IMG/VR virus record: IMGVR_UViG_3300035670_000214
Coordinates: 1 to 61,427 of that record
Length of the DNA: 61,427 bases
From: a virus
Taxonomy: Duplodnaviria; Caudoviricetes
Reading direction: 5' to 3' (one strand)
The first letter of the stretch is position 1; the number at the start of each line of letters is the position of its first letter. Positions 3,996 to 48,896 of the stretch are shown here, in pieces. The notes beneath the pieces were generated by a model. It searched no databases. It was not told where the DNA came from and saw only the letters and a list, made by a program, of their open reading frames with translations. Position numbers and translations under genes: made by a program.

Positions 3996-4203
3996 CGACA
4001 AGTCTGAAAAGCCCAACTATAGTTCCGCTATGGAGATGGGCAAAGGTAAATATGGTGTTTACGTCACCTTTACCAAAGAGGAATTGGAGAAGATTCAAGC
4101 TCATTGCAACGGCATGCGGGTCAATCTGTCAAAGTGGATAAGCAACATGGTACGCGATGAGCTAATGTTAACCGACATCATGGATAAATCAAAGGACGTC
4201 TAA
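3982..4203 (+). CDS. Putative ribbon-helix-helix DNA-binding protein
   Basis: Strand GVYVTF followed by two helices (EELEKIQAHC / NLSKWISNMVRDEL). Confidence 0.55.
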   Translation: MANYNDKSEKPNYSSAMEMGKGKYGVYVTFTKEELEKIQAHCNGMRVNLSKWISNMVRDELMLTDIMDKSKDV

Positions 4204-7037
4204 TGAGCTGGCAGAATCCGTCGCAAGAATTCGTTTACCTACGTACCTACGCTAGATACCTTACTGAAGAGCAGAGAAGAGAGACTTGGCCTGAGACCGT
4301 AGACAGAGTAGTCTCCTTCCTTAAATTGCAGAGAGCTAATGTTCCAGCCAAGGTCTGGATTAAACTTACGAAGTATATGTTAAATCTGGACGTACTTCCT
4401 AGCATGCGACTTGTCTGGGCAGCTGGCCCAGCGGCAGCTAGGTGTAACGTACCCATCTACAATTGTTCCTTCGTAGAGATGAAGGACATTCAATCCTTCA
4501 GCGAGATGTTATATGTACTTATGTGCGGCACTGGTGTTGGCTTTAGTGTGCAGGCTTGCCACGTGGAGCAGCTACCGGAAGTTCCTAAATTCCCGCTACA
4601 GCAGGAATATATCGAGCACAAGGTCGAAGACAGTAAAGAAGGATGGGCCGATTCCCTGAAATTACTGTTAGAGCAGTTATTTTTGGGCAAGAGCGTAAAC
4701 TTTGATTATTCCGCTATCCGGCCTAAAGGAGCGCGGCTGGCTACCATGGGCGGTAGAGCCTCTGGCCCAGAGCCACTCGTAGTCTTGCATCAATTCGTGA
4801 AGGATACCCTGCACGCTGCCCAAGGCCGTAAACTTAAGCCTATAGAAGTCCACGACATTTGCAATAAGATAGCCGAGATAGTGGTAGTTGGTGGCGTTAG
4901 GCGTAGCAGTCAAATTAGCCTCTCTGACCTTAATGATGAGGACATGCGCCACGCTAAGGACTGGCCCTGCCCTATCCACAGGTTCATGGCTAATAATAGC
5001 GCAGTATATCTGGAACGTCCAGACGCGGTACAGTTCATGAAGGAGTGGCACGCTCTGGCAGCTTCTGGCTCAGGTGAGCGTGGTATATTTAACTTGGGTT
5101 CCGTCCGAACTAATTCGCCTAAACGTAGAAACAAGGAGCTTATCTCAGGCACTAATCCCTGCGTACCCGGCGATACCGAGATATTGACACGTCAAGGTTA
5201 CCAGCGTATTGACCAATTACTCGGTCAAGAGGTAGAAGTCTGGAACGGTTTTGAATGGTCCAAAGTAGAACCAAAGATTACTGGAGAGAATCAAGCTATA
5301 GTAAAGGTCACCCTATCCAATGGACGCTCTTTACGCTGTACACCCGCACACAAGTGGGTAATAGCTGAAGGATACAACGGTAAAACTAAACGACTTAGAG
5401 CAGATGAATTAGCTGTAGGTATGAAGCTAATAAAGCATGAATATCCTGTTATAAAAGAAGGACGTAGGTTCGAGCAGGCTTATACTCAAGGCTTTATCTC
5501 AGCAGATGGCATGGATGATTACGACTTCTTATACTTGTATGAAACTAAGTTCGTCTGTGAATCTAGATTAGTAGGTCAAGCGGTAGGTAGTGGATACACT
5601 AGCCTTAATGGAACTGAGCGTAAAACTTTTAAGCTTGACTTTCAGCCTATGTCTAAAGACTATGTACCATTCGACTGTGACCTTCAATCTAGGCTAGATT
5701 GGCTAGCAGGGTTATTAGATGGAGATGGTACAGAATTAAAAGAGGGCGGAGTTCAAGTTAGCTCAGTTAATAGGTCATTCCTTCTCGAAGTACAAAAGTT
5801 ACTTACCACCTGTGGCGTAGCATCGAAAGTAACGCTAGGTAATCCAGCTGGGCATCGAATAATGCCAGATGGCAGAGGCGGAGTTAAAGCCTACCTCTGC
5901 CAAGAGGGATATAGATTACTTATAGGCGCAACACAGATGCAAGAGCTAAAAGAACTGGGTCTTAAGTGTGAGCGTTTGAAGCTGGAAGCAAGTCCTAACC
6001 GTGATGCTTCTAGATTTGTAACTATTGCTAGTATTGAAGAGGATGGAGTCGAGGAACTAGTATATTGCTTCACTGAGCCACTCCGCAACCTAGGCTGTTT
6101 CGATGGTATAATAACAGGGCAGTGCGGCGAGATTGCCCTGCGTGACAAGCAGTTCTGTAACCTATCTACTGTCATCGTCAGACCTGAGGACACCCTTACT
6201 AGCCTACTCGATAAGGTAGAGACTGCTGCTTGGATAGGCACAATCCAGGCTTCATTTACCAACTTCCCTTACCTCCGTAAAGAGTGGAGTGAGAACTGTA
6301 AGGAGGAGGCCCTCCTTGGGGTCAGCCTATCGGGCCAGATGGACAATGTTCCCTTGCTCACCAAACAGACCTTAGCTGAGCTGAAACGTAAATGCGTCGA
6401 GGTAAATAAGCACGCGGCTGAGGTATTAGGTATTAAGCAGGCTGCTGCGATAACCTGCGGTAAGCCTGAGGGTACTACTAGCCAACTTACCTTCAGCGGC
6501 TCTGGCTGTCACCCTTGGTACTCAAAATACTTTATCCGTAGGTACCGTATATCTGCTAGCGACCCTCTCTGTCACCTATTAAAGGAGTCTGGTGCTCCCC
6601 TTGTCCCGGAGGTAGGCCAGACCTGGGAGACAGCCAATACCCTTGTGGTAGAGTTTCCGTGCAAGGCCCCCGAAGGGGCCATCTTGCGTGAACAGGTATC
6701 AGCTCTGGACCAGTTAAAGTGGTATAAGCGGGTACAGACCAACTGGTGCGAACATAATCAGTCCATCACCGTCTACGTCAAGCCTGACGAGTGGTTCGAC
6801 GTAGGTAACTGGGTATATAAGAACTGGGACATAGCGTGCGGTCTATCCTTCCTGCCCTACGATGGCGGTAACTACCAGCTAGCTCCCTATGAGGAAATCT
6901 CGCAGGAGGAGTACCAAGACCGGTTAGCCAGGTTCCCGACTATCGACTACTCCCAGTTATGGAAGTACGAGCAGGAAGACCAGACTGAAGGAGCTAAAAC
7001 TTACGCTTGCGTTGGCGATAAGTGTGAGCTAAGCTGA
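4203..7037 (+). CDS. nrdJ: Class II (B12-dependent, monomeric-type) ribonucleotide reductase with an intein
   Basis: PSMR, YNC, GTGVGFS, GGVRRS, TNPC|GEI, FCNL, KPEGT motifs and C-terminal CVGDKC; no small subunit in the genome. Confidence 0.93.
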   Translation: MSWQNPSQEFVYLRTYARYLTEEQRRETWPETVDRVVSFLKLQRANVPAKVWIKLTKYMLNLDVLPSMRLVWAAGPAAARCNVPIYNCSFVEMKDIQSFSEMLYVLMCGTGVGFSVQACHVEQLPEVPKFPLQQEYIEHKVEDSKEGWADSLKLLLEQLFLGKSVNFDYSAIRPKGARLATMGGRASGPEPLVVLHQFVKDTLHAAQGRKLKPIEVHDICNKIAEIVVVGGVRRSSQISLSDLNDEDMRHAKDWPCPIHRFMANNSAVYLERPDAVQFMKEWHALAASGSGERGIFNLGSVRTNSPKRRNKELISGTNPCVPGDTEILTRQGYQRIDQLLGQEVEVWNGFEWSKVEPKITGENQAIVKVTLSNGRSLRCTPAHKWVIAEGYNGKTKRLRADELAVGMKLIKHEYPVIKEGRRFEQAYTQGFISADGMDDYDFLYLYETKFVCESRLVGQAVGSGYTSLNGTERKTFKLDFQPMSKDYVPFDCDLQSRLDWLAGLLDGDGTELKEGGVQVSSVNRSFLLEVQKLLTTCGVASKVTLGNPAGHRIMPDGRGGVKAYLCQEGYRLLIGATQMQELKELGLKCERLKLEASPNRDASRFVTIASIEEDGVEELVYCFTEPLRNLGCFDGIITGQCGEIALRDKQFCNLSTVIVRPEDTLTSLLDKVETAAWIGTIQASFTNFPYLRKEWSENCKEEALLGVSLSGQMDNVPLLTKQTLAELKRKCVEVNKHAAEVLGIKQAAAITCGKPEGTTSQLTFSGSGCHPWYSKYFIRRYRISASDPLCHLLKESGAPLVPEVGQTWETANTLVVEFPCKAPEGAILREQVSALDQLKWYKRVQTNWCEHNQSITVYVKPDEWFDVGNWVYKNWDIACGLSFLPYDGGNYQLAPYEEISQEEYQDRLARFPTIDYSQLWKYEQEDQTEGAKTYACVGDKCELS
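5160..6122 (+). mobile_element. Intein (321 aa) with LAGLIDADG homing endonuclease, at the RNR active-site Cys
   Basis: N-junction TNP|CVPGDTEILT; block B CTPAHKW; QGFISADG and WLAGLLDGDG; C-junction IITGQ|CGEI. Confidence 0.93.
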
Positions 7038-10732: not shown

Positions 10733-11872
10733 ATGGCAACCAGATATACCACCAATCTACGTTTGCGCATTGAGGATAACCTCACCGCAGACGCCATATA
10801 CAACCTTCAACGTATAGACGAACTGGGAGCTGTATTCAAGCTCTCGACCAGTAGCACAGTCGAACTATCCTCAGCTGAAGACGTGCTCATCCAACCAAAT
10901 AATCCAGCAGCAGGTGGCTCGGGCGTAGGCGGACTCGTTCGCGTAGGTTCATCGGGTCAACCAGCCGATGACATTAATCTATTCGCTAGTCGTGTCAACT
11001 TCTCCGCTCAGACTGTAGACTTCGGCAACGCAAATCTATTAGGCAACTTCACTATACCATGGGACAGGATTGACGCTAGCGGTGGCGGAAGTGTAGCTAA
11101 CTTTCCAGACTTTGAATCAGCCGTACTAGCCATACCAGCAGTATCAGCTAATACCTCTCACCCAAGCATTATCGGTAACCCACACCAGACTACCGCAGCT
11201 GACGTCGGAGCTTACAGCACGAGTCAAATTGACGCACTACTTGCAGCCAAAGCTAACCTTAGCCTATTAACGACCCACACTAGCGCAAGTACTGGAGTCC
11301 ACGGTATTACTGGTGCGGTTGTAGGTACAACTGATGCTCAGACTCTTAGCAATAAGTACCTAGACGCTGACAGCAACCAAATAGTCAACCTCAAGAATGC
11401 CAGCATAGCTGAGGGTGCTAACATCCACGGTTCTAAGATTAGACCGCTGTTCGGGAATCAACAGGTCCAGACCTCAGCAGGTCTACGCCTAGATGGCGCA
11501 TCCCAATACGTGGTTCTTCTACCGTCTGCTGCCGTCCAAGCTACACCCCTAAGCTTTCGCCTTCCTAGCTCTTATGGCTCGGCAGGCCAGGTGCTTGCCA
11601 CAGATGGCAACGGCAACCTTAGCTGGCAGAATACCGCCGGAGCTGCCATCAGCGAGGAAGTCTACCTCTGGCTTGATACCGATGGGGTACAGAAGACCGT
11701 CATCCATAACTTTAACAGTCAATCCCTCGACATTACCATTAGAGATACTACTGACAATGAATTAATCTACGTACCAGACATTAATTTCCTTGACAATAGT
11801 ACCCTAGTTCTGATAAGCTCTGAACCACCAAGCAATGCGTGGCAAGTAATAATACAAGGAGTAGCTAAATGA
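10733..11872 (+). CDS. Virion fibre or decoration protein 1
   Basis: VVGTTDAQTLSNK and GQVLATDGNGNLSW fibre motifs; C-terminal HNFN beta-domain. Confidence 0.7.
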   Translation: MATRYTTNLRLRIEDNLTADAIYNLQRIDELGAVFKLSTSSTVELSSAEDVLIQPNNPAAGGSGVGGLVRVGSSGQPADDINLFASRVNFSAQTVDFGNANLLGNFTIPWDRIDASGGGSVANFPDFESAVLAIPAVSANTSHPSIIGNPHQTTAADVGAYSTSQIDALLAAKANLSLLTTHTSASTGVHGITGAVVGTTDAQTLSNKYLDADSNQIVNLKNASIAEGANIHGSKIRPLFGNQQVQTSAGLRLDGASQYVVLLPSAAVQATPLSFRLPSSYGSAGQVLATDGNGNLSWQNTAGAAISEEVYLWLDTDGVQKTVIHNFNSQSLDITIRDTTDNELIYVPDINFLDNSTLVLISSEPPSNAWQVIIQGVAK

Positions 11873-13659
11873 AAATTTTCGGTAGTATCAGTAGGTTGGT
11901 GAGTATCATCTTCCGCAAAGACGGTCAAGATGTTACTTTCCGCCCAAATCAGTCAACCACTTACACAGCAGCCCGTGACATCCAGTTGCCAGTTGGCGAC
12001 GCTGACCATGAATTGGTTGGCAAGGCCGCTAGTCAGACGCTCACTAACAAGTCAATGTCTGGCGATGACAACACATTCTCAAACATTGGGATTAGCTCCC
12101 TTAAGACTGCTCTGTCTGACGCAGACAAGTTGCTACTTCGTGACGTATCCGGCGCAGTAGTATCTGCTAAGTTGGAAGACAAGCACGTTGCCGCTGGTGC
12201 AGCCATTGCCCTCAGCAAATTGGCAGCCCTCACAGCTAGCAAGGTACTTGTATCTGATGGCTCAGGCGTCATCAGCGCATCTAGCGTAACTAGCACTGAA
12301 CTCGGCTACCTCTCTGGTGTAACCTCTGGTATCCAAAGCCAATTGGACGCACTCTCTGCTTCTAGCTCTGGCGCTCTTTCAGACGCTATCGACGACATCC
12401 AAGCTGATATTGCGGCCCTCACCACTGACGACATCGAAGAGGGTTCTTCAAACCTGTACTTCACCGACGCTCGCGCTCAGGCAGCAGCTGTCGTTGACAC
12501 TGGCTACGCTGGAACCGAAACTAACAAGGCTCCTTCTGTCCGTGCAGTTGTTGCAGCTATCCAAGACGTAACTGACGCTATCGACAGCCTCCAATCTAGC
12601 CTGGAAGCTGCTGACGACGCTTTGGCCGCTGACATTGCTTCTGAGGCTTCTGCTCGTGCAGCTGCCGACAGTTCGCTTCAGACTGCCATCGACAATGAAG
12701 TGTCTGCTCGCCAATCTGCAGTTTCCAGCGAAGCTAGCACACGAGCCGCCGCTGACCTTTCTCTCCAAGCTGAAATTGACGCTGAAGAGATTGCACGTGC
12801 TGCAGCCGATGACGCTCTCGACGCTCGTTTGGACGTATTGGAAGGCGCAGACACAGTAGCTGGTTCAGTAGCCAAAGCGCTCAAAGATGCTAATGCTTAT
12901 ACTGATACTGAAATCTCTGCTCTTGAATCCTCAGTCAATAGTTCAGTTTCTGCCCTTGAATCTGCAGACGATGCAATTGAAGCTCGCCTCGACATCCTCG
13001 AAGGTTCAGCTGCAACTGTTGGTAGTGTTGCTAAAGCCGAAGCTGACGCTAAAGCTTACGCTGACCAAAAGATTGCTGACCTTATCGACGGCGCTCCTGC
13101 CCTCCTCGATACACTTAATGAATTGGCTGCTGCTATTGGCGACGACGAGAACTTCGTCACCACTATCACTACCAGCATCAGCAATGAAGCCTCGGCTAGA
13201 GCTAGTGCGGATACCACGCTCCAGAACAACATCAACGCCCTCGAGACTGCTCTCGAAGCCGCTGACTCTGACCTCCAGGACGCTATCGACGCTGAACAAG
13301 CTCGTGCCGAAGCTGCCGAAGCTACTCTCCAGTCGAACATCGACCTCAAGCTAAATAAGCCTAGCTCAGGTGACGCAGCGGATAAATACCTCCGTAGCAA
13401 TGGCGACGGTAGCACCTACTGGGACGTAGGCTACATTCTTCCAGTCTACAAAACTAACTGGGTTGCAGCCGCTGGTACAAGCAAGACTGTCTCCCACAAC
13501 CTCGGTTCAACGGACGTGGTCGTCAGTCTGGTGGACCTGAGCGATAACCAGGTTATCGGCGTAGATAGCATCGTCGTAACGGACAGCAACACAGTAACAC
13601 TCTCCTCCTCGGAGGCTCCTTCGGCTTCCGGCTGGAGAGTTATCGTTCAGAAAATCTAA
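11869..13659 (+). CDS. Coiled-coil fibre protein 2
   Basis: ExxARxxAD repeats; TTDDIEEGSSNLYFT; APALLDTLNELAAAIGDDENF; C-terminal HNLG domain. Confidence 0.8.
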   Translation: MKIFGSISRLVSIIFRKDGQDVTFRPNQSTTYTAARDIQLPVGDADHELVGKAASQTLTNKSMSGDDNTFSNIGISSLKTALSDADKLLLRDVSGAVVSAKLEDKHVAAGAAIALSKLAALTASKVLVSDGSGVISASSVTSTELGYLSGVTSGIQSQLDALSASSSGALSDAIDDIQADIAALTTDDIEEGSSNLYFTDARAQAAAVVDTGYAGTETNKAPSVRAVVAAIQDVTDAIDSLQSSLEAADDALAADIASEASARAAADSSLQTAIDNEVSARQSAVSSEASTRAAADLSLQAEIDAEEIARAAADDALDARLDVLEGADTVAGSVAKALKDANAYTDTEISALESSVNSSVSALESADDAIEARLDILEGSAATVGSVAKAEADAKAYADQKIADLIDGAPALLDTLNELAAAIGDDENFVTTITTSISNEASARASADTTLQNNINALETALEAADSDLQDAIDAEQARAEAAEATLQSNIDLKLNKPSSGDAADKYLRSNGDGSTYWDVGYILPVYKTNWVAAAGTSKTVSHNLGSTDVVVSLVDLSDNQVIGVDSIVVTDSNTVTLSSSEAPSASGWRVIVQKI

Positions 13660-14002
13660 CTTTGGCTAATAGGAGCTGGACGTTAGATTAAGTTACCTTC
13701 GGTAACCAATCTAATGTCGGCCCCTTCGCCTTATAACGAGGGCCAGGGTTGGCCCCCGCTTCCCAAGTATAGGATGTACTTGGCTGACGACATTTAGACG
13801 GGTCAGATGATATTAAAAAAATATCGTGGTGACACTTTAGATGTCAACTTGTAACTTTACTTTTCAGGTAGGAAGAGCTAAAGTTATTCACGCATCCTAC
13901 CGAAGAGTCCTTCAGACTCTAAGTTACGTGATGGGTATCACTTAACCGGTCGGATGAGCATAACATCGGGGCGACACCCCGCCAATAAGGAGAAGCTAAA
14001 GT
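13660..14002 (+). ncRNA. Large structured RNA or cis-regulatory leader B (family not recognised)
   Basis: 343 nt without an ORF, almost tiled by 10 or more hairpins, with alternative anti-RBS pairing. Confidence 0.65.
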
Positions 14003-17000
14003 ATGAAGATTTTTGGTAGTATCAGTGAATTGGTTGACTTAGCCTTTAGACTCGCTGGCGGGAAGCAAGTGAAGCTTCGCTCCGCTACCCAGACCACCGC
14101 AGGTAGCACAGTAACAGTAAACGTCCCGGACGTAGCAGCTACCGGTGACACGCAGAACATGATATTGACGAATGCTACTCAGACCTTAACTAATAAGACG
14201 CTGACTAGCCCAGTAGTTAGCGGTGGTACCATCAACAACTCCATCATCGGCGGGTCTACCCCAGCAGCTGGTACCTTCACTGACATCGTAGGTTCTACGC
14301 TCGATATCAATACTTCCGCCGAGTTACAGACACTTACTATTCCTAGCTTATCAACAGCTGGTGTATTGCACAATAACTCCTCAGGCGCAGTAAGTTCTTC
14401 CCTTGTCGTTAACGCCGACGTAGATGCTGCAGCAGCTATCGCATTTAGCAAATTGGCTACCCTCGCTTCCGGAAATATCCTCGTAGGCTCTAATACAGGC
14501 GTAGCTACCTCTCGTGCAGTCACTGGTGATGTAACCATCAGCGACCTTGGTGTTACCGCCATTGGCGCTAGCAAGGTCACCGATAGCATGCTAGCTGGTA
14601 ACATAGCTAGAACTAAGCTGGCTACTGGTAACAACTACCGCATACTTGCTAACGATTCCTCAGGTGCAGTGTCTGAGAACGCTGCTTTGACAGCTAACGA
14701 AGCAGTAGCTACCGATGCAAATGGCCAACTGGTATCAGTAACCGGCGTATCCGCTACTGAACTGGGTTACTTATCTGGCGTAACATCCGACGTCCAAACA
14801 CAAATAGATAGTAAGCAAGCAGCTGATGCTACCCTTACTGCTATTGCTGGTGTAACCACTGCCGCCGATAAGTATATCTACTTCGATGGTGTAGATAGCG
14901 CACAAGCAGCTACTATCACCTCATTTGCTCGCGGCCTTTTGGACGATACTAGTGCTACTATAGCCCAGAATACCCTGGGTTTGGGCTCTATGTCCACCCA
15001 GGCTGCCACCAGTGTTAATATTACCGGCGGCACCATACAGACAACTAACCTTCAGAATAACACCCTGAACGGCCATAAACTCGGTTCTGGTTCTGCAAGC
15101 ATTGCTAGCTCTACTCTAACTCCAGCATCTAATAAGTCACTTCAACTTATCGCTTCAGCAGCCAACTTCGGCATGATAGCCAGTCCAAGTGACGGACAGG
15201 AATATGTCCTCGTCAATGAATCTGCATCTGACATTACTATACAGAATCTTACAGGCGCTACTGCAGCTAACCAAATTTATACTGGTACTGGAGCAGATTT
15301 TACCTTTAAGGCTAAATCAGCCGTATCAGTAGTCTACGACGGTACACTTAGCAAGTGGATGTTGACTGGCGGCGGCGGTGGAGCTGGTGGACTTGCTACC
15401 ACCTACGTTACAGCTGGCGGCATCACTGCAGTCAAGAATACTCACTACCTTACGAATCTGGCTGCATCGGGCCAGACCATTACTCTCCCAGCTGGTGTTG
15501 ATGGCGACGTCATCCGCTTCTCTGACGCAGGTGAAGTCTGGGATGTATACCCACTTACCATCGCCCCAGCAAGTGGCGAGAAGATTGATAAGCTTGCGAT
15601 AGATGAGACGCTCGTATGTGACGTCAAGCGCGGCTGGGTTGAGCTCTCCTACAACAGCACCTTCGGCGGCTGGGCTTTCATGTCTCTGGCTTCCAGCTCT
15701 GGCAGTGCCTCTGGCTCTGGCGAGATTAATGCTGTGCTTAACGCCTCGGCAGCAGCTGACACTACTGGCTGGACGAATGCTACACGCGTAAGCTCTGGCT
15801 CACCTTTGGACCCAGTTGTCACTACAGCCCTCAGCATTTCAAATGTGGCAGCTTCCGAAGGCCCTACCTCAGGTGGCTACTACTCTATCGCAACAATGCC
15901 AGCTTCATTACGAAGCAGAAAACTTAAACTAGAATTCTACTATTCCACACCGGCTACAGATGTGTACAAGGTGTCGGTTTATGCCGGTTCAACCAGACTG
16001 TCCCTCAGCAGTGACAACTCAGGAGCTACAAGCCTACCAGCCAACGTAACAGGAGGCTTCTTCAGCGCATCCTTCGACGCTACTACAGCTTCGGCTTACA
16101 CACTGAACATCACCCGTACCTCCGGTACTACTGGCGCAATCACGGTTACGAATGTTGTCGTAGGCCCAGGCATCGTAGCTCAGGGTGCAGCTATTAGTGA
16201 GTGGCAGAGTTATACGCCTGCAAGTACGCAAGGTTTTGGTAATCCCACTGCTACGGTTTATAGATATAAACGTTCAGGTAGCTCAATAATTGTCTCCGTG
16301 AAATTTACCGCTGGCACGGTTACAACTGACGAAGCACGTATATCCCTCCCGTCCGGGCTCACGAGCGCAACCACAAATGCATTGACTATGGTGGGAGCGT
16401 ATGCAAGGGGTACAGGTACTACAGCATCGGCAAATCAAGTATATATTGAAAACGGTGCGGCTTACTTAACTTTTGGACGGGCAGATGGAACCTTAGCTGG
16501 ATATGCTAAGCGGCAAGGTAGTCAGCTTGTTTCCGCTGGTGAGGATTTTGGTTTTACTACTGCAGAAATCCCCATCGCTGAGTGGGCCGGAAATGGCACA
16601 GTCAATTTGGGACAAGGTGCTAACCTCGAATATGCCTTTAATAGCTCGGCTACCACCACGACGGACACGACGAGTTTTGGCTATGGTCCGACCGGCGCTG
16701 CTTTTGCTGCGTTTGCTCCAGGTGGAACAGCAAGTGTAGATAAACGAGTCAGGTTTCAGTATCCAATACAACAAGATGATGAATTGGTTGTCGAAGTGCA
16801 AGAAGCTGGTACTGGAACTTGGGTGCCCTTAATTTCCCGTTTAGGGGCTTTTTACAGCAACGCTGCAGGTACTACCTACTACGGGACTCAATTGATACGT
16901 GTATCTGGTAGCTCGACTGATGTTGATGTTGCATTCTACGCCGCAGCTCCATCTCAAGGAGCCTGGTCTTCATTAAGTACCTGGAAATGGCGAGTACGCA

Positions 17001-17494
17001 AAGCCAAGGCCAGCGCCCCTGTTGGTTTCGGTCTAGCTACAGCTGACCAAGCTGGTCTGTTACGTGGCTACAGCAACATGTCCAAGATTCGCCTGAATAC
17101 TGGTAATGGCTACGGGTCTACTAACACAGCTATCCGACGGTTCACTAACACAGTAGTTAATACCGGAACAGGTATTACCTACGCTGATAGTGCAACGCTT
17201 GGAGCTACGTTTACTGTCAATGAAGCTGGTATTTATGCAATATCGTATAGTGACGGATTTAATGCTGCAGCTGCTTTTGGGATTAGTTTAAACTCAACTC
17301 AATTAACAACAGCTATCGCAACTATTACAGCAGCAGACCGTTTGTGTATGTCAGTAACATCGGCAGCTGATTACCATTCCAGCGTCAGCGTAACTTTAGC
17401 CCTTTCTGTAGGTGATGTTATTCGCGCACATGCAGGAACTGCGGACAGTACAGCTCCTGTAAGAACGCAATTTACTATCCAACGTATCGGTTAA
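14003..17494 (+). CDS. Long tail fibre / receptor-binding protein 3
   Basis: 1163 aa, Ala/Thr/Ser/Gly-rich; QTLTNKTLTSP, TELGYLSGVTS and DATLTAIAG fibre motifs; C-terminal beta domains. Confidence 0.85.
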   Translation: MKIFGSISELVDLAFRLAGGKQVKLRSATQTTAGSTVTVNVPDVAATGDTQNMILTNATQTLTNKTLTSPVVSGGTINNSIIGGSTPAAGTFTDIVGSTLDINTSAELQTLTIPSLSTAGVLHNNSSGAVSSSLVVNADVDAAAAIAFSKLATLASGNILVGSNTGVATSRAVTGDVTISDLGVTAIGASKVTDSMLAGNIARTKLATGNNYRILANDSSGAVSENAALTANEAVATDANGQLVSVTGVSATELGYLSGVTSDVQTQIDSKQAADATLTAIAGVTTAADKYIYFDGVDSAQAATITSFARGLLDDTSATIAQNTLGLGSMSTQAATSVNITGGTIQTTNLQNNTLNGHKLGSGSASIASSTLTPASNKSLQLIASAANFGMIASPSDGQEYVLVNESASDITIQNLTGATAANQIYTGTGADFTFKAKSAVSVVYDGTLSKWMLTGGGGGAGGLATTYVTAGGITAVKNTHYLTNLAASGQTITLPAGVDGDVIRFSDAGEVWDVYPLTIAPASGEKIDKLAIDETLVCDVKRGWVELSYNSTFGGWAFMSLASSSGSASGSGEINAVLNASAAADTTGWTNATRVSSGSPLDPVVTTALSISNVAASEGPTSGGYYSIATMPASLRSRKLKLEFYYSTPATDVYKVSVYAGSTRLSLSSDNSGATSLPANVTGGFFSASFDATTASAYTLNITRTSGTTGAITVTNVVVGPGIVAQGAAISEWQSYTPASTQGFGNPTATVYRYKRSGSSIIVSVKFTAGTVTTDEARISLPSGLTSATTNALTMVGAYARGTGTTASANQVYIENGAAYLTFGRADGTLAGYAKRQGSQLVSAGEDFGFTTAEIPIAEWAGNGTVNLGQGANLEYAFNSSATTTTDTTSFGYGPTGAAFAAFAPGGTASVDKRVRFQYPIQQDDELVVEVQEAGTGTWVPLISRLGAFYSNAAGTTYYGTQLIRVSGSSTDVDVAFYAAAPSQGAWSSLSTWKWRVRKAKASAPVGFGLATADQAGLLRGYSNMSKIRLNTGNGYGSTNTAIRRFTNTVVNTGTGITYADSATLGATFTVNEAGIYAISYSDGFNAAAAFGISLNSTQLTTAIATITAADRLCMSVTSAADYHSSVSVTLALSVGDVIRAHAGTADSTAPVRTQFTIQRIG

Positions 17495-17665
17495 TCCGGT
17501 CCCGAAGGGGACCATCCCGTTACTTCTAGCGAAGTAACTTCTGACTTGACCTGGCACCTCAGCAGGTTTACAATCTGAGGTGTATTCTTTCTGTTTTAAC
17601 CACTTATGGCTAACCCGTTCCCGACAGGGAACCTGGTGGCCATACAACGAATAAGGAATAAACGC
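17495..17665 (+). promoter_or_regulatory. Structured leader C
   Basis: Hairpins GGTCCC/GGGACC, GTTACTTC/GAAGTAAC, CACCTCAG/CTGAGGTG, GTTCCC/GGGAAC; TATTCTTT can pair with the SD region AAGGAATA. Confidence 0.6.
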
Positions 17666-19992: not shown

Positions 19993-20991
19993 ATGGCTAG
20001 GTCACTTACTACCCGCCAGTTGATTGCTGCCGTCCGCTCTCTCATTGACGAGCAGAACGAAGCAGAGATTAACGATACTATTGACATACTACCATCCCTT
20101 AACCGGGGATTCGATGACGCCATCGACATTCTAGCACGGCGCTACCCTGATGCCCTTATAACCAACCGCACTGTCTCCTTAAGCGAGGGCGATGAGGGTC
20201 TATTCCCCATCCCGGAAGATGCCTTTCAAGAGCGCTTAGAGAAGGTAGAAGCTAGCATCAATGGCTACTACACCGAGATTCAAAGGATAGACTACCGGGA
20301 CATTACCTACTACGATGTACCCCAGAACTCGGGTTCACCCTTCTACTACGCAGTCATAGGTTCAGATTATAAATTGGTCCCTCCGCCTTCAGGTATTGAT
20401 GGCCTTCGCATCTGGTATATACCAGAAGTAGGGCCACTCGTCGAGGAGTACGGGCGCATAACTGTGATAGGTACCGACAATTCGCTACCTACGGCAAGGT
20501 CGTACGTCAGATTGACCGACGTAACTGACCCTGACCAAGTTAGTCAAGATATAAGCTCCTTGTCTAGCTTCGTTAACCTCATCGACCACAGAACTGGTCG
20601 GATAAAGGCTACCCTCCAGATTGCTAGTATCTCAGGACCTAAGGTAATATTCAGTGCTAGTCCTAATAGGGCAGTTGTTCAGGGCCGCACTGTCAGTACT
20701 TCGCTTCCAGCAGGTACTGAGCTGGATGACTACCTCTGTCCGGTTGACGGTACTTGCATACCTCCTATGCGCTCTCCTTTGACCAACTTCCTCATTACCT
20801 ATAGTTCAGCCGAACTGAAAGCACTGAAGCTGGACGGCGACCCTAACGTGGTACTAGCTCAGCTTAAAAAATTCGAGGAGCGAATAGAGAAGACCTGGGT
20901 AAGAAGAGAGCAGTCTCAGCGAGTTTACCGAGCATCCAAGAACTGGGGTCCACGTACCAATAACCTCTGGGTGCGTACTCCGCGAACATAA
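19993..20991 (+). CDS. Head-tail adaptor (tail tubular protein A-like)
   Basis: LIAAVRSLIDE...LNRG...FPIPED...GSPFYYAV...LVPPP...IWY pattern; lies upstream of the nozzle gene. Confidence 0.7.
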   Translation: MARSLTTRQLIAAVRSLIDEQNEAEINDTIDILPSLNRGFDDAIDILARRYPDALITNRTVSLSEGDEGLFPIPEDAFQERLEKVEASINGYYTEIQRIDYRDITYYDVPQNSGSPFYYAVIGSDYKLVPPPSGIDGLRIWYIPEVGPLVEEYGRITVIGTDNSLPTARSYVRLTDVTDPDQVSQDISSLSSFVNLIDHRTGRIKATLQIASISGPKVIFSASPNRAVVQGRTVSTSLPAGTELDDYLCPVDGTCIPPMRSPLTNFLITYSSAELKALKLDGDPNVVLAQLKKFEERIEKTWVRREQSQRVYRASKNWGPRTNNLWVRTPRT

Positions 20992-21882: not shown

Positions 21883-24800
21883 ATGGCGACTAGATATCAG
21901 GACATCTCCTACGGTAGCTTCGGTGGTGGTATAGACCAGCTCTCACCCGAGAGCAAGATACCGGATGACTTCGTAGAGCTTTTAGACAATGTAGACCCTA
22001 CGCCTAACGGCTCGCTAGTTAAGCGTACTGGTACCCAGCTATTCGGCTCGGTACCTGTTCGCGTTGAGCGTATAGAGTACATCCGTGTCGGCAGTCCTGG
22101 AGATTACTCCGGTGAGCTCTGCTTTTTCCTCGATACTAGCGTGGACGTTATCAGTCTTCGCTCTACCCCCATTTACGTCTACGGTAGAACCAGCGAGGGC
22201 CAAGCAGCTGGCGATTTCACCAGCGTTAGCTCCGGTAAGTACTACCCTAAATTTACAACTGACGTCCGGCAATCAGTACTTGAATCGGATGGTATAAGCG
22301 AGCAAACTACTACCATACTGCTAGAAGGTAATACCCACGACCAAGGTTCCCTTCTAGCCTTCGGCCTCTTCCAGAGTATTAGTAGCACTAACCTCGGTAA
22401 CCAGGTAATAGTACCTACCAGCGTTAAGGTAGATAAGCTAAGTGCCGACGTTACCGCCGAAGTAACTACTGGCTTGACTAGCGATGAATCGACCGTAATA
22501 TTTGATACCTTCGCCGTCGCCAAGTCAAGAGCATTCGACCCAGGTACCTCTTACGTCTACACCGCTAGCTTAGCTACAGCTGCTAGCTTTCCTAACCCAG
22601 TCACAGTTAGTATAGCAGCTGGTACCCATAACCTTACCAGCTTTAACATCCTGGCTGATTGCTACCTAGACAATGGTACCGAATACGAGCGTATAGTACC
22701 GGATAGCTACGTGATTACCCCGGCTGGTTCTGTTGAACTATCCTTTAGCTACTATCAGAATTTTAACCTAGTAGCCTGCCTCTACGCTGCACCCAGCAGT
22801 CAATCTAAGATGCAGCTTGTGGAGTCGGGCGAGATAAATGAAACTATAATAGTAGATTACCCAGATACTCCTTTCCTATTCTATCAGCTATTTGCCGAGC
22901 AGCTCGATGGTTCTCGCGTAGCCTTCTACGGTAGCGCCAATTTGGATACGGTAAACGCAGCAGCCGCTAGCGCCGTACTCGACGTAAGACTACTTCCAGG
23001 TGCAACCTCTGACTATCGTTCCACCTTTTACGTCACTAACCAATCTGGTACCGACCTTACTACCTTAACAGTTTGGGATTACGGAAGATTGGTTTCCAAC
23101 AAACTATGCGTAGAAGCAAGCGACCCTGTAATCGACACATTTGCAATAAGCATACCAGGTAGTGAGCATAAATTGGGGGAATTCGTAGCTACCACATTGC
23201 TACAATCCACTAACCCTACTAACCAGAATAACCTACTTATCCAGTATGACGAGGCTAGTACAGCAGTAGTAGACGACACCGTCACCATCAATCTGGCAAA
23301 TAATACCACCAGCCAATTTACTGCCTATGCCATTTTGGCCGATAGGTCTATAATGAGCGGAGCCTATCACCACCCGGCTACACTAGTTGCCGGAGGGACT
23401 ACTCAAACTATTAGCATACCAGCTAGTACGCATAACAAGGGTGCTGATGTAAACCTAAGCCTATTTAGAGTGGTACCGGGAACTGGAGCTACTACTAGCT
23501 ACGAGGAATTACCAGTAACCGATTTAACGATTAGTAGCACAGGCAATATCACCTTATTGGTAGAGAATACCGGAACTAGTGAATACTACGTAATACCGGT
23601 AGTATATTCCGTCACGAATACAGCCACTTCAGGTAGTATAGCTAGTGGAACTACCGGCACACTTAGTATCAGTAGCCTTACCAATCCATTTGCTTTCATC
23701 CATGTCTACCAGATATCTGGCACAGATAGAATACGTATAACCCCAGACCGCGTCTCTGTCAATAGCATTCTCGGAACTGGCAGTATTCAGGTGACTAATA
23801 ATACCGGTTCTGCCCTGACGTATAAAGCATTGTGGGACTACGCCGACTATACCAGCGAAGAGGTGGTTCCTATCACGTCTAGCAGTGGTACTGGTTATAG
23901 GGATAATAACCCGCAGATGACTATCTGGGGTTTACCTCACCGACAGTTGTACTCAGGTGCTACTGGCTCGACTCCAGGCTACGTAACTCACGTAGACGTC
24001 TATAGAGCGCAGGCAGAGGAAAGACCAGTCTGTGGACTTGGCGGAAACCTCTACAATGCTATAGACTTTAGCGAGGCTCCGGCTAGTTACGGTATGGGAG
24101 AATACTATCCTAACCTTAGAGCTAGGGTAGATACGCCAGTTGTAGTAGGCCCTGCTTTCATCAATACCACAGATAGCGATACTAGCCGAACTCAAGGTGT
24201 TATTCGTTTCACTACTGCTGGCAACAATTTGGCTGCCATCGTTCGCTCCGTCTACCAGCAAGGGACTGAAGCGTATCCTGATTATTCCTCTAGCTCCACC
24301 TACACTACCGGAGCTATCGTTAGATTTAACGCTAGCTACTACCAGGCGCTTATGAGTGTACCTGCAGGTCAGGCACCTAGCAATACTGCTTACTGGGAGG
24401 AGGTATTTGAGGGGCATGTAACCTATCGCCTTTACGTACCTAATCTAACTGTGATAGGCTCACTGTCACAAATATTCAATAGCAGCGAATTTCTCACCGT
24501 TAGCGGTATGGGTTACTCCATTAATAATGGTGAATTTAACGTTATAAGTGCAGCCCTGGTACCTAGCAGCGATTACCTGGACGTCACCGTCTATAACCCT
24601 GAGCTCGATACCGCTGACTGGAATGAAGCTAGTTCAGACGGAAGAGCTGGTATCTTCACTGACCGCATTCCTCTGGAAGTGACCTGCCCATTCTTCGAGA
24701 ACGATAGATTACTGTCAGCAAGCTGGGGCGAGGAGCAATTGTTAACCGTTACCGGCACTTCAGCTGGTAATGAAGTCCGCATGGATGGACTCTACGAGAA

Positions 24801-27800
24801 TGTAAGTATACCTGATGGTCTTCTCCTCGTCGGCTCTAGAACCAGCCGTATCATACCTCTCCGCTCGCTTAACGCTATACCTACTACCCAGAATCTGGTA
24901 GCAGGCGATATTCTTAGCTTCACTAACCTCAGCCGTGAGCTTAGAGCTAAATTCGTGAATCCACGGGCAGATGAGGTCGTTAGCATTTCCAGCAACCTCA
25001 GCTATACCTTGGACGACAATCCACCTGTCCGCGTCAATGTGGCCGATTCCAACCTATTCCAGGTAGGCCAGCGTATACTATTACTTAACGCTGGTCAGTT
25101 CACTGGCGAGCAGTTGATAGAAGAGATTATCAGCCCAACTCAGGTTCAACTAGTAGTTAAAGCTTATACCCCAGCACTGGGGGGATGTGTAATTTTTGGC
25201 TATAACGTCGAGGTAGACGAGGATTTTCCTTGGTTCGACAGCTTGACCTCTACCATCAGTTTCACGGTAACCAGACGCTGGTGGCCTATCGAGGAGCCAG
25301 ACAACGACTACCTGCAGTTACCTCCTAATAGGTACCGCTACTTCAACAGTGCTGCGTACGACAACCAGCCATTCCTCCGCTCTACCATGGTACAGGATAC
25401 CATGTATCTGACCAATGGTCTGGATGCGGTACAGCGCTACGACGGCCAGAACCTGACTAGGGCTGGTCTCTTCCGTTGGCAGGCAGGTCTATACCTAACA
25501 CTAGATACTACGACGGTAGGTAAGGTAGTACCTAATACCTATCAAATAGATAACGCTAAAATTGGCTCAGTTGGTAGTAACTTCTTTAACGTAGATAAGT
25601 ACCTTGATAAACACTTCGCTATTGGAGATGTTATACGTTATACCAATGTTACTAGCGGAGTTACGGTAACGCGAGACCTTACTATCACCAAAACCTGGGA
25701 AGGAAACACTGAATCTGTTATAGAAGTAGACACAGATGGTGTAGCCCTGCTAACTAGTGGTACTAAGACGCTTAATAAGGTAAGTACGTACTCCTATTAC
25801 TATCGCCTTAATATGATAGATGTTAATGGAAATATTATAGCTAGTGCCGTTACCAACGCACAAGATGCTAGGATAGATATAGCCCAAGCCGCTGCTATCA
25901 AGCACTTGCTTGTCCGGCCTCCGTTCCTAGATAACTTTGACTTCGCTCGTATCGAGATACAGGTGTACAGAACCAAGGCAAACTTAACTGGACCTTATTA
26001 CCTAGTAGCTACATTGCAGCCTAACTGGAATATCGGTGGCGAAGCCTACCTTGAGTTCACTGACACAGCTGCGGATAACACTCTCGCTAGCACCAACCTT
26101 GACCCAGTTAACGCCACACTCTTAGGGCAAGAATTGGGCCAGACTTGGTCAGGTCCTTTACGTAGTAAGTATCTAACTTCCAATTCCAATAGCCTTGTAC
26201 TAGCCAACTTCCGTAGCTGGCCTAGCCTAAGTCTGCGTCCTCAACGCCTAGCCGAGATAGAGAAGACGGAGTTAGCCGACTACGCAGGCCGTAAGCTATT
26301 AATACTAAAGGATAGTACTGACATTGGGCTTACTACCGATAACCTGAATAGGATGCAATTTGAGTTCCTCTCATCCGGTGCCCATACCATAAGTCTGTCT
26401 GGTGCAGCTATAGACTATGACACTAACGAATTGACTATAACTAATGCAAGTCATGGACTGGTTGAGGGTAACTGGATATATCTGTTCTTTACTAATAGCG
26501 GGCCAACTTCCATTGACCCACGAGTAGGCGGGCACTACCAGGTTAGTTCGGTAGTGGATACTAATAGCTTCCGTATCCAACTGTCCAACACCTTACTTGA
26601 TAGTATCAATACTTACCCACTTAACGGGCAGGACGTCAATCGTTACGTCCACGCTACTAATGCAAATGACGTGCCAGTCTGGATAGGTTCTGACCTATTA
26701 TATAGCACTAAAGCTGGTCTAAAGCAAGCCTCCGTTGACCCTAGCACCTTTGTATTCCTGCGACTTGCCAACGCTATCAATAGTGCGCAAGCTGCTTGTA
26801 ACACTCAAGATTTCGTTCCTTGGATGGTAGCTAACGCTGGTGGCGAGTGGCGAGATAATCGTATAGTAATCGAGACACCTTACGTCACTGATAGCAGGCT
26901 AGCAGCTATACTTCCTAGCTTTGATAACCTCATCATCTACGCTAACGAGCTTAGAGTTAACGCTGGCTCAACCGTACTTGCTGAAGTTCAGGTCTTCCCT
27001 AGCCGTATACTGGTGAGCTACCCTAACTATCCAGAAATATTTGATGCACCTTTAGCCTTCCTAGACACAGATAGTGAATCAGCTATCGACATCAATCCTT
27101 CAGATGGTCAAGAGATAACAGGGGTTATACCGTTCTTTGGCGAGTCGGCTTTCGGAGCTGCGCAAAAGGATAGTATCCTTCTGGTATTTAAGACTGCTTC
27201 CGTCTACCTAGTCAATATTGCGGCCAAGAGGGCAGGCCAGCCTTGCGTACAGCGCCTCGATACCAGAGGCCTTGGTTGTACCGCGCCGTATTCGATAGCA
27301 CCTACCCAGAACGGTATAATGTTCGCTAACCAATCTGGTATCTACCGTATTACCACTAACCTCCAGTGTCAGTACATCGGTCGCCGTGTAGAGCGTATCT
27401 GGAAGGAAGAAGTAGACCTTAACCAGCTAGACTTACAACTACACGGACACTATTACCCGCTGGGGCACCAGTACAAGCTGTCTGTTCCCTATCGGGATGA
27501 TGAGAGGGATTACTCCCAGCGCGTACTGGTCTACAACACCGTTCGGGAATACACGGCTGACGGGTACAGGGACGGTAGCTGGACTTCCTACTCTAATCTA
27601 CCAGCTATCGGCTGGGCTAACATGCTAAGACAACCACTGTTTGCAACCCCTAACGGAGAGGTATTTACTCTCCGCATGACTGGGGATAGCACAGACTACC
27701 GTGACGATGGCTCGCCTATCGAGGCTGTAGCTACCTTACGGGCTATGGACTTTGGCTCGGCTAGTATAAGGAAAGCGGTGGCTAGCTTTAACATGCAATT

Positions 27801-36900: not shown

Positions 36901-37070
36901 AGGAGCTTACTATGGGCGGGTTTGAATTATTTGAGGGAGACCCGGACCGTCTAGGTAGAGCTATGAGAAATGCAGCTAGGGCTTTTACTCCCGGAGGAGC
37001 ACAGGCAATAGTCAGTCTAACAGAACAACTGTCAGGTAAAGATATACCAATATTAGGAAAGGAAGAGTAA
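33918..37070 (+). CDS. Large internal virion (ejection) protein
   Basis: 1050 aa helical; glycine zipper; C-terminal ERINRAVAY...LFSY...PLFSMFSKYP pattern typical of large podovirus ejection proteins. Confidence 0.7.
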   Translation: MASNILDEIPDLKTVGEADELSAIPDLKTVNEEELAAIPNLKEIPDEPEKGGIFEGKDITQAEIQDIASRNQTDPELLKMFAPYLGRSVEGEKGAVTTARRTIGFVSEALGGLPTWVAKKAQDPNVEKAIDELNELTERKKSYAQKGTEIAAGLVTPTAMVAQTGSRAALAGAGALESAGFALGESKSGEELKQAAMGAGIGAIAGTVLAPLILRGGKAGKLAAEEPLSPTGIDELKQIATPDTVKILDTVEQEVAGKVPGWERELSELLALVEDTPKTIGPADIDDLKGKMPDELKELLLDFSDKLGGPRTFDGAINKVRELKATLAPEDLQKAYTRWRTIKTVGDDLEKLAVNEPRIATELRAIKDFFIDFSSVARDMDRRLGIDVSGTLLEATKRTNLYQVALRDYLKGKLNLNSSYEKLAPELQTEVADALDGVGAYANMTREQIAQAIPDAAKDNYLGWRKFFDDAATKVKTDYKLPLETRANYLPHQMMDMPRVIVAIEKKIEEAAKGLKINPLSLPANYDLSQVQRGTPLDELVRAIHYLTGKEPTNGAELSAQLKQAIQPGGSVYADEIKASALLQRTNLMPKFIQERDVRKLSTKWGQQVYRYANLKNSLADLRYQAELLRKSGNVDDAIKLERLHDEFLGQARFLAKTTRQAAVWFQTRALRLAERQEEGAIKGFYNFLAESPDMFQNMVLNVYPNFLGASPRAAIQNLTGGLYMMIPELGFIYGTRAVVPAYLKALANVGKESYREQLERAGFLAPQWTTELREAIRTGRPPGLVGQSAEKLSNAVMWMFEFSERINRAVAYETGKFLAKDAAAGDKLALKYLNTMPERIRKDTLKYLAKKDDEKSLEKAQDLITRYLADRTLFSYNRITSSELSRAIGPLFSMFSKYPSAISGRIADIFQERGAVKGGAEFLRFFVAPLMAGVGINAILTQPGSNLETWLFGEPKSPDASIWARGATSSSPIFAVKSILEGRQFQPPLVATAKELTMGGFELFEGDPDRLGRAMRNAARAFTPGGAQAIVSLTEQLSGKDIPILGKEE

Positions 37071-48653: not shown

Positions 48654-48896
48654 GCAACGGTTGACTGCCGAAACGCTTAAGCTTATTGCCTGAGAACTGA
48701 CCTAAGTTACCCATCTCTTCAGGATGGAAGAGATAACCACCAAATTCGTAACCCTCACTAGCTAACAGTTCGGAGCTGTTACTTAGGGAAACGGTAGCCA
48801 GGATTGGGTCAAAGGGCCAGTTCTTAGTCATAGCTTAGGGCTCTTTCAATCTGATTCTGTGAATAGCCCAAGTTACACTTACGTGTAACCTGCACA

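Follow-up and report, generated by a model that had tools for sequence, protein, structure and literature searches.

Intercistronic RNase III processing hairpins are reportedly present in the late and early mRNAs of phage T7, in work attributed to Dunn and Studier (1983). RNase III cuts T7-type sites inside an irregular duplex some two helical turns long, and cutting leaves protective hairpins and can alter translation of the next gene. In enterobacteria, the extragenic palindromes known as REP and BIME elements stabilise 3' ends and make the genes of one operon differ in expression. For phages more broadly, the main text of PMC10690425 describes 8,495 candidate structured RNAs upstream of phage genes in IMG/VR; like GP20-a/b (RF02991, RF03003), they come from metagenomic viral contigs, are structured and covarying, lie at most 25 nt upstream of phage genes and are presumed to be cis-regulatory.

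The window analysed here, 61,427 nt in length, is the complete 61.4-kb genome of an uncultured phage. It holds a 343-nt intergenic spacer (13660-14002, + strand) between two tail-fibre genes called from the ORF list and from PHROG tail and tail-fibre families. The short-fibre gene (11869-13659, + strand, 596 aa) has a start that overlaps the stop of the gene upstream, the long-fibre gene (14003-17494, + strand) encodes 1163 aa, and the two proteins have the N-terminus MKIFGSIS in common. A DNA search of a phage collection gave no match to a cultured relative; at the protein level the portal gave only distant matches of 22-26% and the fibre only short patches. No ORF longer than 34 aa was found in the spacer, and a hidden small gene was rejected as the ORFs of 20-34 aa sit in parts that are changed or missing in relatives and none of them is kept. 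The search for tRNA and tmRNA genes found none. A DGR template or retron ncRNA was rejected (0 matches to PF00078 in the genome with positive controls, and no second copy of the spacer), as was a TIGR array (0 matches to PF01798 with positive controls, and no periodic direct repeats in the spacer).

Like the T7 sites, the spacer places irregular hairpins in a gap between co-oriented genes on a polycistronic phage message, and one of its hairpins, H7, is predicted to be a long bulged duplex of ~14-18 bp with one bulge. The T7 sites, however, are single hairpins of ~50 nt, whereas the spacer carries an array of eleven, and no sequence likeness is claimed. The resemblance to REP and BIME elements lies in stable palindromic hairpins that cluster between cistrons and vary in number between strains. 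REPs form one sequence family with hundreds of copies per genome, whereas every hairpin here is unique. A REP/BIME or MITE-like repeat was rejected, the spacer occurring once in the genome and no module having a second copy longer than 12 nt. Words from H6 and H9 had 0 matches in IMG/VR, and the H7 and leader patterns had 0 matches in 185,579 bacterial species genomes. The sequence-only reading had recognised no riboswitch family, and no known RNA family was matched: the best Rfam match in 13000-14700 reached 18 bits (cut-off 69) with an E-value of 1.9, the whole 61,427-nt stretch gave 0 matches at the gathering score, and five relatives gave 0 matches at E <= 1. The GP20-a/b and other Rfam models do not match this spacer, and the word "fiber" is absent from the main text of PMC10690425, the part of that source to which the comparison applies, so that overlap with its candidate lists is possible. 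As the spacer is non-coding, matches no Rfam family and, as detailed below, has a conserved structure with covariation, the proposal of an undescribed cis-acting structured element is a reasonable one.

The predicted fold is exceptionally strong. The minimum free energy of the + strand is -131.7 kcal/mol, compared with -91.05 +/- 4.75 for 100 dinucleotide shuffles (z -8.56, 0 shuffles as good), and that of the - strand is -124.4 kcal/mol (z -6.67). When 343-nt windows were folded every 100 nt over the whole genome, the spacer was the top outlier on both strands. It also stood out among the 17 folded gaps of 70-420 nt (the two longer gaps aside), with z -8.8 against values from -3.9 to +1.8 for the other 16. 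Only 9 of the 123 pairs are G-U, which leaves room for selection on DNA palindromes.

About eleven hairpins make up the array, all given here on the + strand. H1 (13679-13718) is a two-tier hairpin detected among the inverted repeats, with an 11-bp outer stem of arms GACGTTAGATT and AATCTAATGTC that encloses GTTACC-TTC-GGTAAC, a 6-bp inner stem with a UUC loop. An AACGAG box followed by H2 (13735-13758, H2 itself 13737-13758, GGGCCA-GGGU-UGGCCC) is identical in the closest relative, L165. Then come H3 (13763-13783) with a GGA loop, H4 (13784-13806) with the loop motif UUAGAC, which L165 and a variant contig of sequencing run X4 retain on different stems, and H5 and H6 (13807-13846; 13807-13827 and 13830-13846), which are specific to this variant. 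H7 (13851-13887), long and A/U-rich, has a single bulged C, and in it ACTTTACTTTTC (13854-13865) pairs with GAAGAGCTAAAGT (13872-13884). The outer stem of the leader hairpin, H8 (13893-13956, CATCC.ACCG/CGGT.GGATG), encloses H9 (13904-13920) and H10 (13928-13941). It is followed by the single-stranded box AGCAUAAC (13957-13964), which forms invariant alignment columns and reads AGYAUAAC in 6/6 sequences, and by HB (13967-13981), a hairpin 5 nt upstream of the Shine-Dalgarno that has 5 bp in its stem and 5 nt in its loop, the last two being CA. The Shine-Dalgarno AAGGAG, the spacing GAAGCTAAAGT and the ATG of the long-fibre gene, seen in the sequence and in alignment with relatives, occupy 13987-14005. 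The stems that the sequence-only reading had listed were present within one base of where it had placed them; its GGCCC/GGGCC stem was not supported, the computed fold pairing GGGCCA with TGGCCC in H2.

Spacers in the same place were found in five related phages or metagenome contigs. They are 151-266 nt long and all structured, with z -4.91 (L165), -3.05 (L006), -5.33 (L007), -5.09 (L166) and -3.36 (L167); a sixth relative, L003, has a spacer of just 52 nt. Homologue searches with the long-fibre query returned 4 loci, one with a 52-nt spacer, those with the short-fibre query 79 loci (3 close), the N-terminal alignment 80, mostly distant, and a metagenome scan 5. A search of IMG/VR with the leader pattern gave no contigs beyond those already known, and a covariance model of the leader (R1) found nothing new in 164 other loci or elsewhere in the 61,427-nt stretch. 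The homologous spacers found number six and fall in two groups, group B being L007, L166 and L167, which leaves few independent events behind the covariation. Common to this phage and group B is a leader skeleton of AACGAG plus a hairpin, AGYAUAAC, HB and AGGAGAA; (A)ACGAG followed by a hairpin is present in this phage and 5/6 relatives, L006 having AAAGAG.

In the comparison of this phage with L165 and L006, both sides had changed in 17 of 52 consensus pairs, and 95.4% of cells were paired. None of 500 shuffles scored as high and slid controls gave 0-4 such pairs with 34-49% paired, the consensus structure having been derived from the same three sequences that were used for counting. With a structure-blind pairwise alignment, aligned pairs were still paired in 46/54 cases in L165 and 53/55 in L006 (26-57% in slid controls), the 8 broken pairs out of 54 in L165 standing against only 2 compensated ones. 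H1 is a two-tier hairpin in L165 and L006 too, with different stem letters and the loop cUUCGg in L165. Covariation was seen in 2/8 pairs of H2 and 6/9 pairs of the H8 outer stem, and H3 had changed on both sides in 5/7 pairs around an unchanged GGA loop. In H7, 12/14 pairs are invariant among the three sequences, and the loop varies (AGGTAG, AGGTAA, AGGGAA); its two basal pairs have changed, one through both bases and the other through a single base, and are still paired. Between the two groups, over six sequences, HB shows G-C to A-U replacements at two consecutive pairs (2/6 pairs), with 94.4% of cells paired and a score reached by 0/500 shuffles. Within the closest group H7 and HB show no variation and so are uninformative there, for or against pairing. 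The + strand folds better in 4/6 spacers and the - strand in 2/6, and G-U pairs gave no consistent strand of action.

The spacer evolves more slowly than the fourfold sites of the flanking genes (identity to L165 190/225 and 114/171, respectively; Fisher p 4e-5), a sign of purifying selection. Natural variants gain and lose whole hairpins around a conserved core. Sequencing runs with shares below 0.2 were left out and stretches without cover were not counted as absence. In contigs from other metagenomes (runs X4, X6 and X20), 13904-13946 (H9 and H10) is replaced by TA; one X6 contig has 13895-13954 swapped for 13 L165-like letters; and one X4 contig has 13785-13851 swapped for 24 other letters, with loss of H5 and H6. 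The last two hairpins are also absent from L165, and neither IMG/VR nor the rest of this genome holds a further copy of them. A population variant in H1, C13696T, converts C-G to U-G and leaves the bases paired. Most of the array cannot be essential, since several hairpins are dispensable in nature and L003 manages with 52 nt.

A riboregulator had been proposed from the sequence, in which 13854-13865 toggles between a decoy at 13872-13884 and the RBS region at 13990-14002 and so switches translation of the long fibre. Decoy and RBS region do have 13/15 letters in common, as a 15-nt direct repeat (AGGAAGAGCTAAAGT at 13870-13884 and AGGAGAAGCTAAAGT at 13988-14002, 87%), ACTTTA is able to pair with TAAAGT at both places, and in this phage the Shine-Dalgarno is predicted to be largely paired (P unpaired 0.23). 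The partition function computed for 13660-14042, however, gave 13854-13865 an expected 11.95 pairs out of 12 with its partner at 13872-13884 against 4e-5 with 13986-14005, and forcing ACTTTA:TAAAGT at the RBS cost 8.2 kcal/mol (-124.7 vs -132.9 kcal/mol). The predicted partners of the Shine-Dalgarno are instead 13725-13733 and 13660-13667. This masking is no stronger than chance, 13% of 30 controls with shuffled upstream sequence being as low, and spacer-driven sequestration was predicted in this phage and in none of the six relatives: the Shine-Dalgarno is predicted to be open in L165, L006, L007 and L166, and paired with downstream coding bases rather than with the spacer in L167. The RBS-side partner CTAAAGT occurs only in this phage and L165; the other 4/5 relatives (L006, L007, L166 and L167) carry other spacers at the RBS, even though L006 keeps the H7 arms unchanged. 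Neither two comparable, mutually exclusive helices nor the keeping of both pairings in relatives was found, and the modules being dispensable, there is no conserved junction resembling a ligand pocket. We therefore judge the toggle very improbable. As to a further suggested pairing, with codons of the fibre genes, 13886-13904 is complementary to 14012-14030 over 19 nt (79%), but 13886-13906 gave only 0.39 expected pairs with codons 3-9.

No sigma-70-type promoter (at least 9/12, 16-18-nt gap) and no intrinsic terminator (G+C-rich stem-loop plus U tract) was called on the + strand within 13660-14002, so that the simplest assumption is transcription reading through from the short-fibre gene; the sole + strand terminator call, at 13619-13637, lies inside that gene. 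Contigs from the RNA library X20 cover 13676-13779 and run from 13858 through to 14049 in the long-fibre gene. They are weak evidence, because DNA can occur in such libraries, and do not show strand or ends. Alternatively, the spacer could exert control as DNA: H7 would hold a promoter (TTTACT-17-TAAAGT) on which a palindromic operator, bound by a dimeric regulator, is superimposed, the upstream hairpins would end the short-fibre unit, and the long fibre would be transcribed separately from H8. The invariant arms and variable loop of H7 are what half-sites would give, a start ~7 nt past TAAAGT would make H8 the 5' end of the message, and the inconsistent strand asymmetry suits DNA palindromes. 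At the position of H7, group B has a conserved TTGACC-17-TACATT that is directly followed by a hairpin, AGYAUAAC and HB. This sigma-70-like box scores 9/12 in L166 and L167, ahead of the same leader, while L007 has TTGATT-17-TACATT by eye and no scan call; L166 also has a terminator-like hairpin with a T-rich tail called at 896-919. Another spacer of this phage carries TTGACC-17-TACAAT on the + strand (17546-17574). Against this, TTTACT-17-TAAAGT, recognised by eye, matches the sigma-70 consensus at just 8/12 and was not called by the promoter scan. Elsewhere in the genome the H7 word is no commoner than chance allows (9 matches at up to 2 mismatches, 6.1 expected), the basal pairs of H7 are unbroken in all three sequences although a promoter alone needs no such pairing, no upstream U-tract terminator was called in this phage, and no regulator is known. 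A search for sigma factor domains found none. A genome-wide phage promoter or operator was rejected, since AGYATAAC (4 found, 5.5 expected) and a TGTAC box resembling the phiEco32 late promoter, reported as tAATGTAtA in PMC8948821, were, like the H7 word, not enriched in the genome. On balance we find DNA-level control rather unlikely. The group B gaps are like the spacer in position and leader skeleton and unlike it in that L166 and L167 have a sigma-70-like promoter, whereas this phage has no + strand promoter or terminator and 7-8 extra hairpins; as the promoter, and in L166 the terminator-like hairpin, stands ahead of the same leader, the leader is the part common to both designs.

A further alternative is largely neutral growth of palindromes. 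Template switching during replication, or a similar process, would keep making and correcting inverted repeats in a tolerant gap, with only the last ~50 nt (leader and RBS) functional. Entire hairpins come and go between close variants, they are near-perfect, as the low G-U share shows, L003 has only its short spacer, and PMC8794818 reports that template switching gives rise to RNA hairpins and to changes that look compensatory. Such growth, however, does not fit an alignable spacer that is better conserved than fourfold sites, nor conserved blocks far from the RBS (13850-13892, 41/43 identical to L165; 13718-13774, 46/57). The block 13955-14002 is 46/48 identical to L165. The loop motifs UUAGAC, GGA and a CCGAUA-like one outlast changes of their stems, and the genome holds no donor copies of the inserted hairpins, the best off-target match being 12 nt. 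We regard this explanation as improbable. Still more doubtful is a separate small RNA gene, giving either a stable RNA cut from the spacer or an antisense RNA that would start at a minus-strand box and extend through H4-H1 as far as the terminal part of the short-fibre gene. That box, TTGACA-16-GATATT (13847-13820, - strand), is sigma-70-like at 10/12; the first 20 kb holds four distinct sites of this score, in six rows, and 3/4 of them lie in gaps. The - strand also folds strongly. The box sits inside H5/H6, however, and is thus present only in variants that carry these hairpins and missing from L165 and some population variants; no - strand terminator-like site follows within the spacer, and no RNA family is matched.

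The explanation that we favour, with about even confidence, is that the gap is transcribed and serves as spacer and leader between the two cistrons. Its hairpins would form a modular array around a conserved core, and this array would influence how both fibre messages are processed, how stable they are or how they are translated. We infer its action at the RNA level, its processing and its effect on expression. In such a model the spacer would be a cis-acting part of the late fibre message between the short-fibre stop and the long-fibre RBS, with independently folding hairpins and a skeleton made of the AACGAG box and its hairpin, H7 and the leader (H8, AGYAUAAC, HB and Shine-Dalgarno). Its most likely action would be mRNA punctuation: the hairpins would uncouple the two cistrons and, probably once an endonuclease has cut in or near H7 or AGYAUAAC, shield the short-fibre message at its 3' end and the long-fibre message at its 5' end. 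HB may keep the RBS in a fixed, open context, and the outcome would be to set the amount of long fibre relative to short fibre. One could go further and regard the spacer as a novel type of regulatory RNA, discrete and rapidly evolving, whose core (AACGAG-hairpin, H7 and AGYAUAAC-HB) is read by a phage or host factor and whose expansion hairpins, added or dropped, act as a rheostat tuning the ratio of the two receptor-binding fibres, so that hairpin number itself would be the trait that evolves and is selectable in natural populations; we offer this as an unlikely but tenable extension.

Phages with two fibres need a set fibre ratio, and how it is set is rarely known. The spacer does not provide a new switch mechanism. 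It does offer a tractable case, being the most structured non-coding stretch of its genome, under selection, with natural variation in whole hairpins and a position at the very point where the short-to-long fibre ratio would be determined. To the few known cis elements of phage structural genes it contributes a leader motif specific to the clade, in which AGYAUAAC is followed by a covarying hairpin and then the Shine-Dalgarno. Together with its relatives and variants it also forms a natural length series of 52, ~150, ~230, ~300 and 343 nt.

The genome is complete, a 61,427-bp viral record with direct terminal repeats, in which portal, tail and fibre proteins and an SU10-adaptor-like protein are among the products encoded on the + strand at ~1-37 kb, with replication genes on the - strand. 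Two ORFs with PHROG tail or tail-fibre matches, of 596 aa (short fibre, 11869-13659) and 1163 aa (long fibre, 14003-17494), have in common an N-terminal part beginning MKIFGSIS and flank the spacer studied here (13660-14002, 343 nt). DNA and protein searches found no close cultured relative of the phage. A 332-aa protein (19993-20991) matched the SU10 adaptor family PF24175 (E 4.2e-7, 31 bits, cut-off 27), and this sequence match hints at distant kinship with the C3-type podoviruses, which carry long and short fibres. A ribonucleotide reductase gene (4203-7037; phrog_367, E 4e-148) sits amid the virion genes, between portal and tail genes. A 2075-aa ORF (21883-28110) had no Pfam or PHROG match, and the sole match of a 1050-aa ORF (33918-37070) was weak and fell at the end of an unknown-function PHROG of 3431 positions.

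The stems listed in the sequence-only reading are present in the spacer and were recovered by folding. The minimum free energy of the + strand was -131.7 kcal/mol vs -91.05 +/- 4.75 for 100 dinucleotide shuffles (z -8.56), none of which was as good; the - strand reached -124.4 kcal/mol (z -6.67). The spacer was the top outlier on both strands in a G+C-corrected scan (343-nt windows every 100 nt). Folding covered 17 of the 19 gaps of at least 70 nt left by greedy gene calls, leaving out two of 522 and 504 nt, and the spacer stood at z -8.8 vs -3.9 to +1.8 for the other folded gaps. The next most structured gap, of 243 nt, lies among the replication genes (48654-48896; z -3.9 on the + strand, -3.5 on the -). 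The spacer holds no ORF above 34 aa and no periodic repeats, no tRNA was found in it, and no Rfam family came near its threshold.

Searches with the two fibre proteins uncovered six homologous places, three in IMG/VR (L006, L007 and L003, with spacers of 247, 266 and 52 nt) and three in metagenome contigs (L165, L166 and L167, with 228, 152 and 151 nt). The five longer spacers all beat their own shuffles (z -3.05 for L006, -5.33 for L007, -4.91 for L165, -5.09 for L166 and -3.36 for L167). Two groups were apparent, group A with the window, L165 and L006, and group B with L007, L166 and L167. Relatives of group B have a gap at the short-fibre gene as well (L170:7220-7330, L172:4406-4516 and L169:2391-2501), in which a terminator-like hairpin and its T run are joined by a leader hairpin and a Shine-Dalgarno site; in group A, the start of this gene and the stop of its upstream neighbour overlap. 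Another contig, L008, stops within the short fibre, and L085, an IMG/VR contig of a close relative, has no spacer as it begins at long-fibre codon 8 (L085:1-80), just past a DNA stretch common to both fibre genes, probably through an assembly break at this shared repeat.

The six long spacers all share one leader: a hairpin, the single-stranded box AGYAUAAC (13957-13964), the hairpin HB (13967-13981; 5-6 bp, loop ending CA), GCC, four bases and AGGAGAA. Between groups A and B, two adjacent pairs of HB change from G-C to A-U, 94.4% of the cells are paired and no shuffle reaches the score; by eye, an HB-like hairpin is present even in the 52-nt spacer. By eye, the window and five relatives have an (A)ACGAG box with a hairpin after it; the sixth, L006, has AAAGAG. 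A covariance model of the leader retrieved nothing further from the 164 other loci searched or from elsewhere in the window, and patterns for the hairpin H7 (13851-13887) and for the leader gave no match in 185,579 prokaryote species (one genome each).

Group A also shares H2 (13737-13758), H3 (13763-13783), H7 and the outer stem of H8 (13893-13956). RNAalifold gave 52 consensus pairs for its three sequences, 17 of which were changed on both sides with the pair kept. In the pair count, made on the very three sequences that had yielded the structure, 95.4% of the cells were paired, a value reached by 0/500 shuffles, and slid partners gave 0-4 two-sided pairs. In structure-blind pairwise alignments, 46 of the 54 aligned window pairs were still paired in L165 (44 unchanged, 2 compensated, 8 broken) and 53 of 55 in L006 (48 unchanged, 2 one-sided, 3 compensated, 2 broken), vs 26-57% in slid controls. 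H1 (13679-13718) has two tiers in all three sequences, the stem letters differing from one to the next, and its loop in L165 is cUUCGg.

In the switch that had been proposed for the spacer, 13854-13865 would pair either with a local decoy (13872-13884) or with the RBS region of the long fibre (13990-14002). When 13660-14042 was folded as a direct test, the segment 13854-13865 had 11.95 of 12 expected pairs with the local partner vs 4e-5 with the RBS region, and forcing ACTTTA onto the TAAAGT on the start-codon side cost 8.2 kcal/mol. The Shine-Dalgarno site (13987-14005 with the ATG) is predicted to be mostly paired, as masking would have it (mean probability unpaired 0.23), but with 13725-13733 and 13660-13667 and not with 13854-13865. 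With the upstream part shuffled, it was equally closed in 13% of 30 controls, and the upstream part of the spacer closed the site in none of the six relatives. The likeness of decoy and RBS is real (13/15 between the 3' arm of H7 and the RBS region) but is not kept in relatives, and the toggle is therefore not conserved: the RBS-side partner CTAAAGT occurs only in the window and L165, and L006 keeps H7 letter for letter with another spacer before the ATG.

The hairpins H5 (13807-13827), H6 (13830-13846), H9 (13904-13920) and H10 (13928-13941) are in the window and not in L165, and the same differences were seen as natural variants in contigs of four public sequencing runs placed on 13300-14400. 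In runs X4, X6 and X20, 13904-13946 (H9 and H10) is replaced by TA; one X6 contig has 13 letters in place of 13895-13954, as in L165. One X4 contig carries 24 letters in place of 13785-13851, which holds H5 and H6, and another keeps H3-H7 with 2 differences in 127. C13696T (X6, X20) changes one C-G pair of H1 to U-G. No second copy of any hairpin module was found in the genome or in IMG/VR. The contigs of X20, an RNA library, cover 13676-13779 and 13858 to 14049, which would fit a transcript running through spacer and long-fibre gene; the library may contain DNA, and its contigs define neither strand nor ends.

These data fit a transcribed intercistronic spacer and leader with hairpins selected as structures, in which a small fixed skeleton is joined by accessory hairpins of fast turnover. 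One main rival is neutral growth of palindromes by template switching (PMC8794818). A purely neutral origin is opposed by the comparison of the window with L165, as identity at fourfold-degenerate positions was 68% (94 sites) and 65% (77 sites) in the flanking fibre genes vs 84.4% for the aligned spacer columns (190/225 vs 114/171; Fisher p 4e-5, or 1e-4 when three unaligned L165 bases are scored as differences). Identity is highest in 13850-13892 (H7 and flanks, 41/43) and 13955-14002 (leader, 46/48). The other main rival is a promoter or operator acting at the DNA level in H7; readings at the DNA level stay plausible given that strand asymmetry is not consistent and that few independent sequences are available. 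By eye, H7 holds TTTACT-17-TAAAGT (8/12), a box that, if used, would start a message at the foot of H8 and therefore keeps this rival alive. No + strand promoter-like or terminator-like site was called inside the window spacer. In L166 and L167, a + strand TTGACC-17-TACATT was called directly ahead of the leader hairpin, in L166 with a terminator-like hairpin overlapping the -35, and L007 has TTGATT-17-TACATT (by eye, under the scan threshold). No sigma factor domain was found, and the phiEco32-type late promoter word was not enriched. A reverse-transcriptase or Nop-associated element was rejected, as neither domain was found in the genome.

Judged by the example of T7 processing sites and of the extragenic palindromes in bacterial operons, the hairpins would likely affect the processing, stability and translational independence of both fibre messages, and hence their ratio. 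We rate the spacer as a structured intercistronic leader, a known kind of element and not a new mechanism; what is unusual is how large it is, how high it ranks in the genome and that it is polymorphic by whole hairpins. No described family was found to match it, the comparison with a published set of 8,495 IMG/VR candidates for structured RNAs (PMC10690425) covering the main text, in which fibres go unmentioned.

Two further sites were recorded around the long-fibre gene. A strong sigma-70-like box on the - strand, TTGACA-16-GATATT (13847-13820, 10/12), lies inside the variant-specific H5/H6 and faces the short-fibre gene, with the long fibre behind it. Downstream of the long-fibre gene, the gap 17495-17605 contains three hairpins (z -3.84 on the + strand), the third overlapped by TTGACC-17-TACAAT (17546-17574), the promoter type of the group B fibre gaps.
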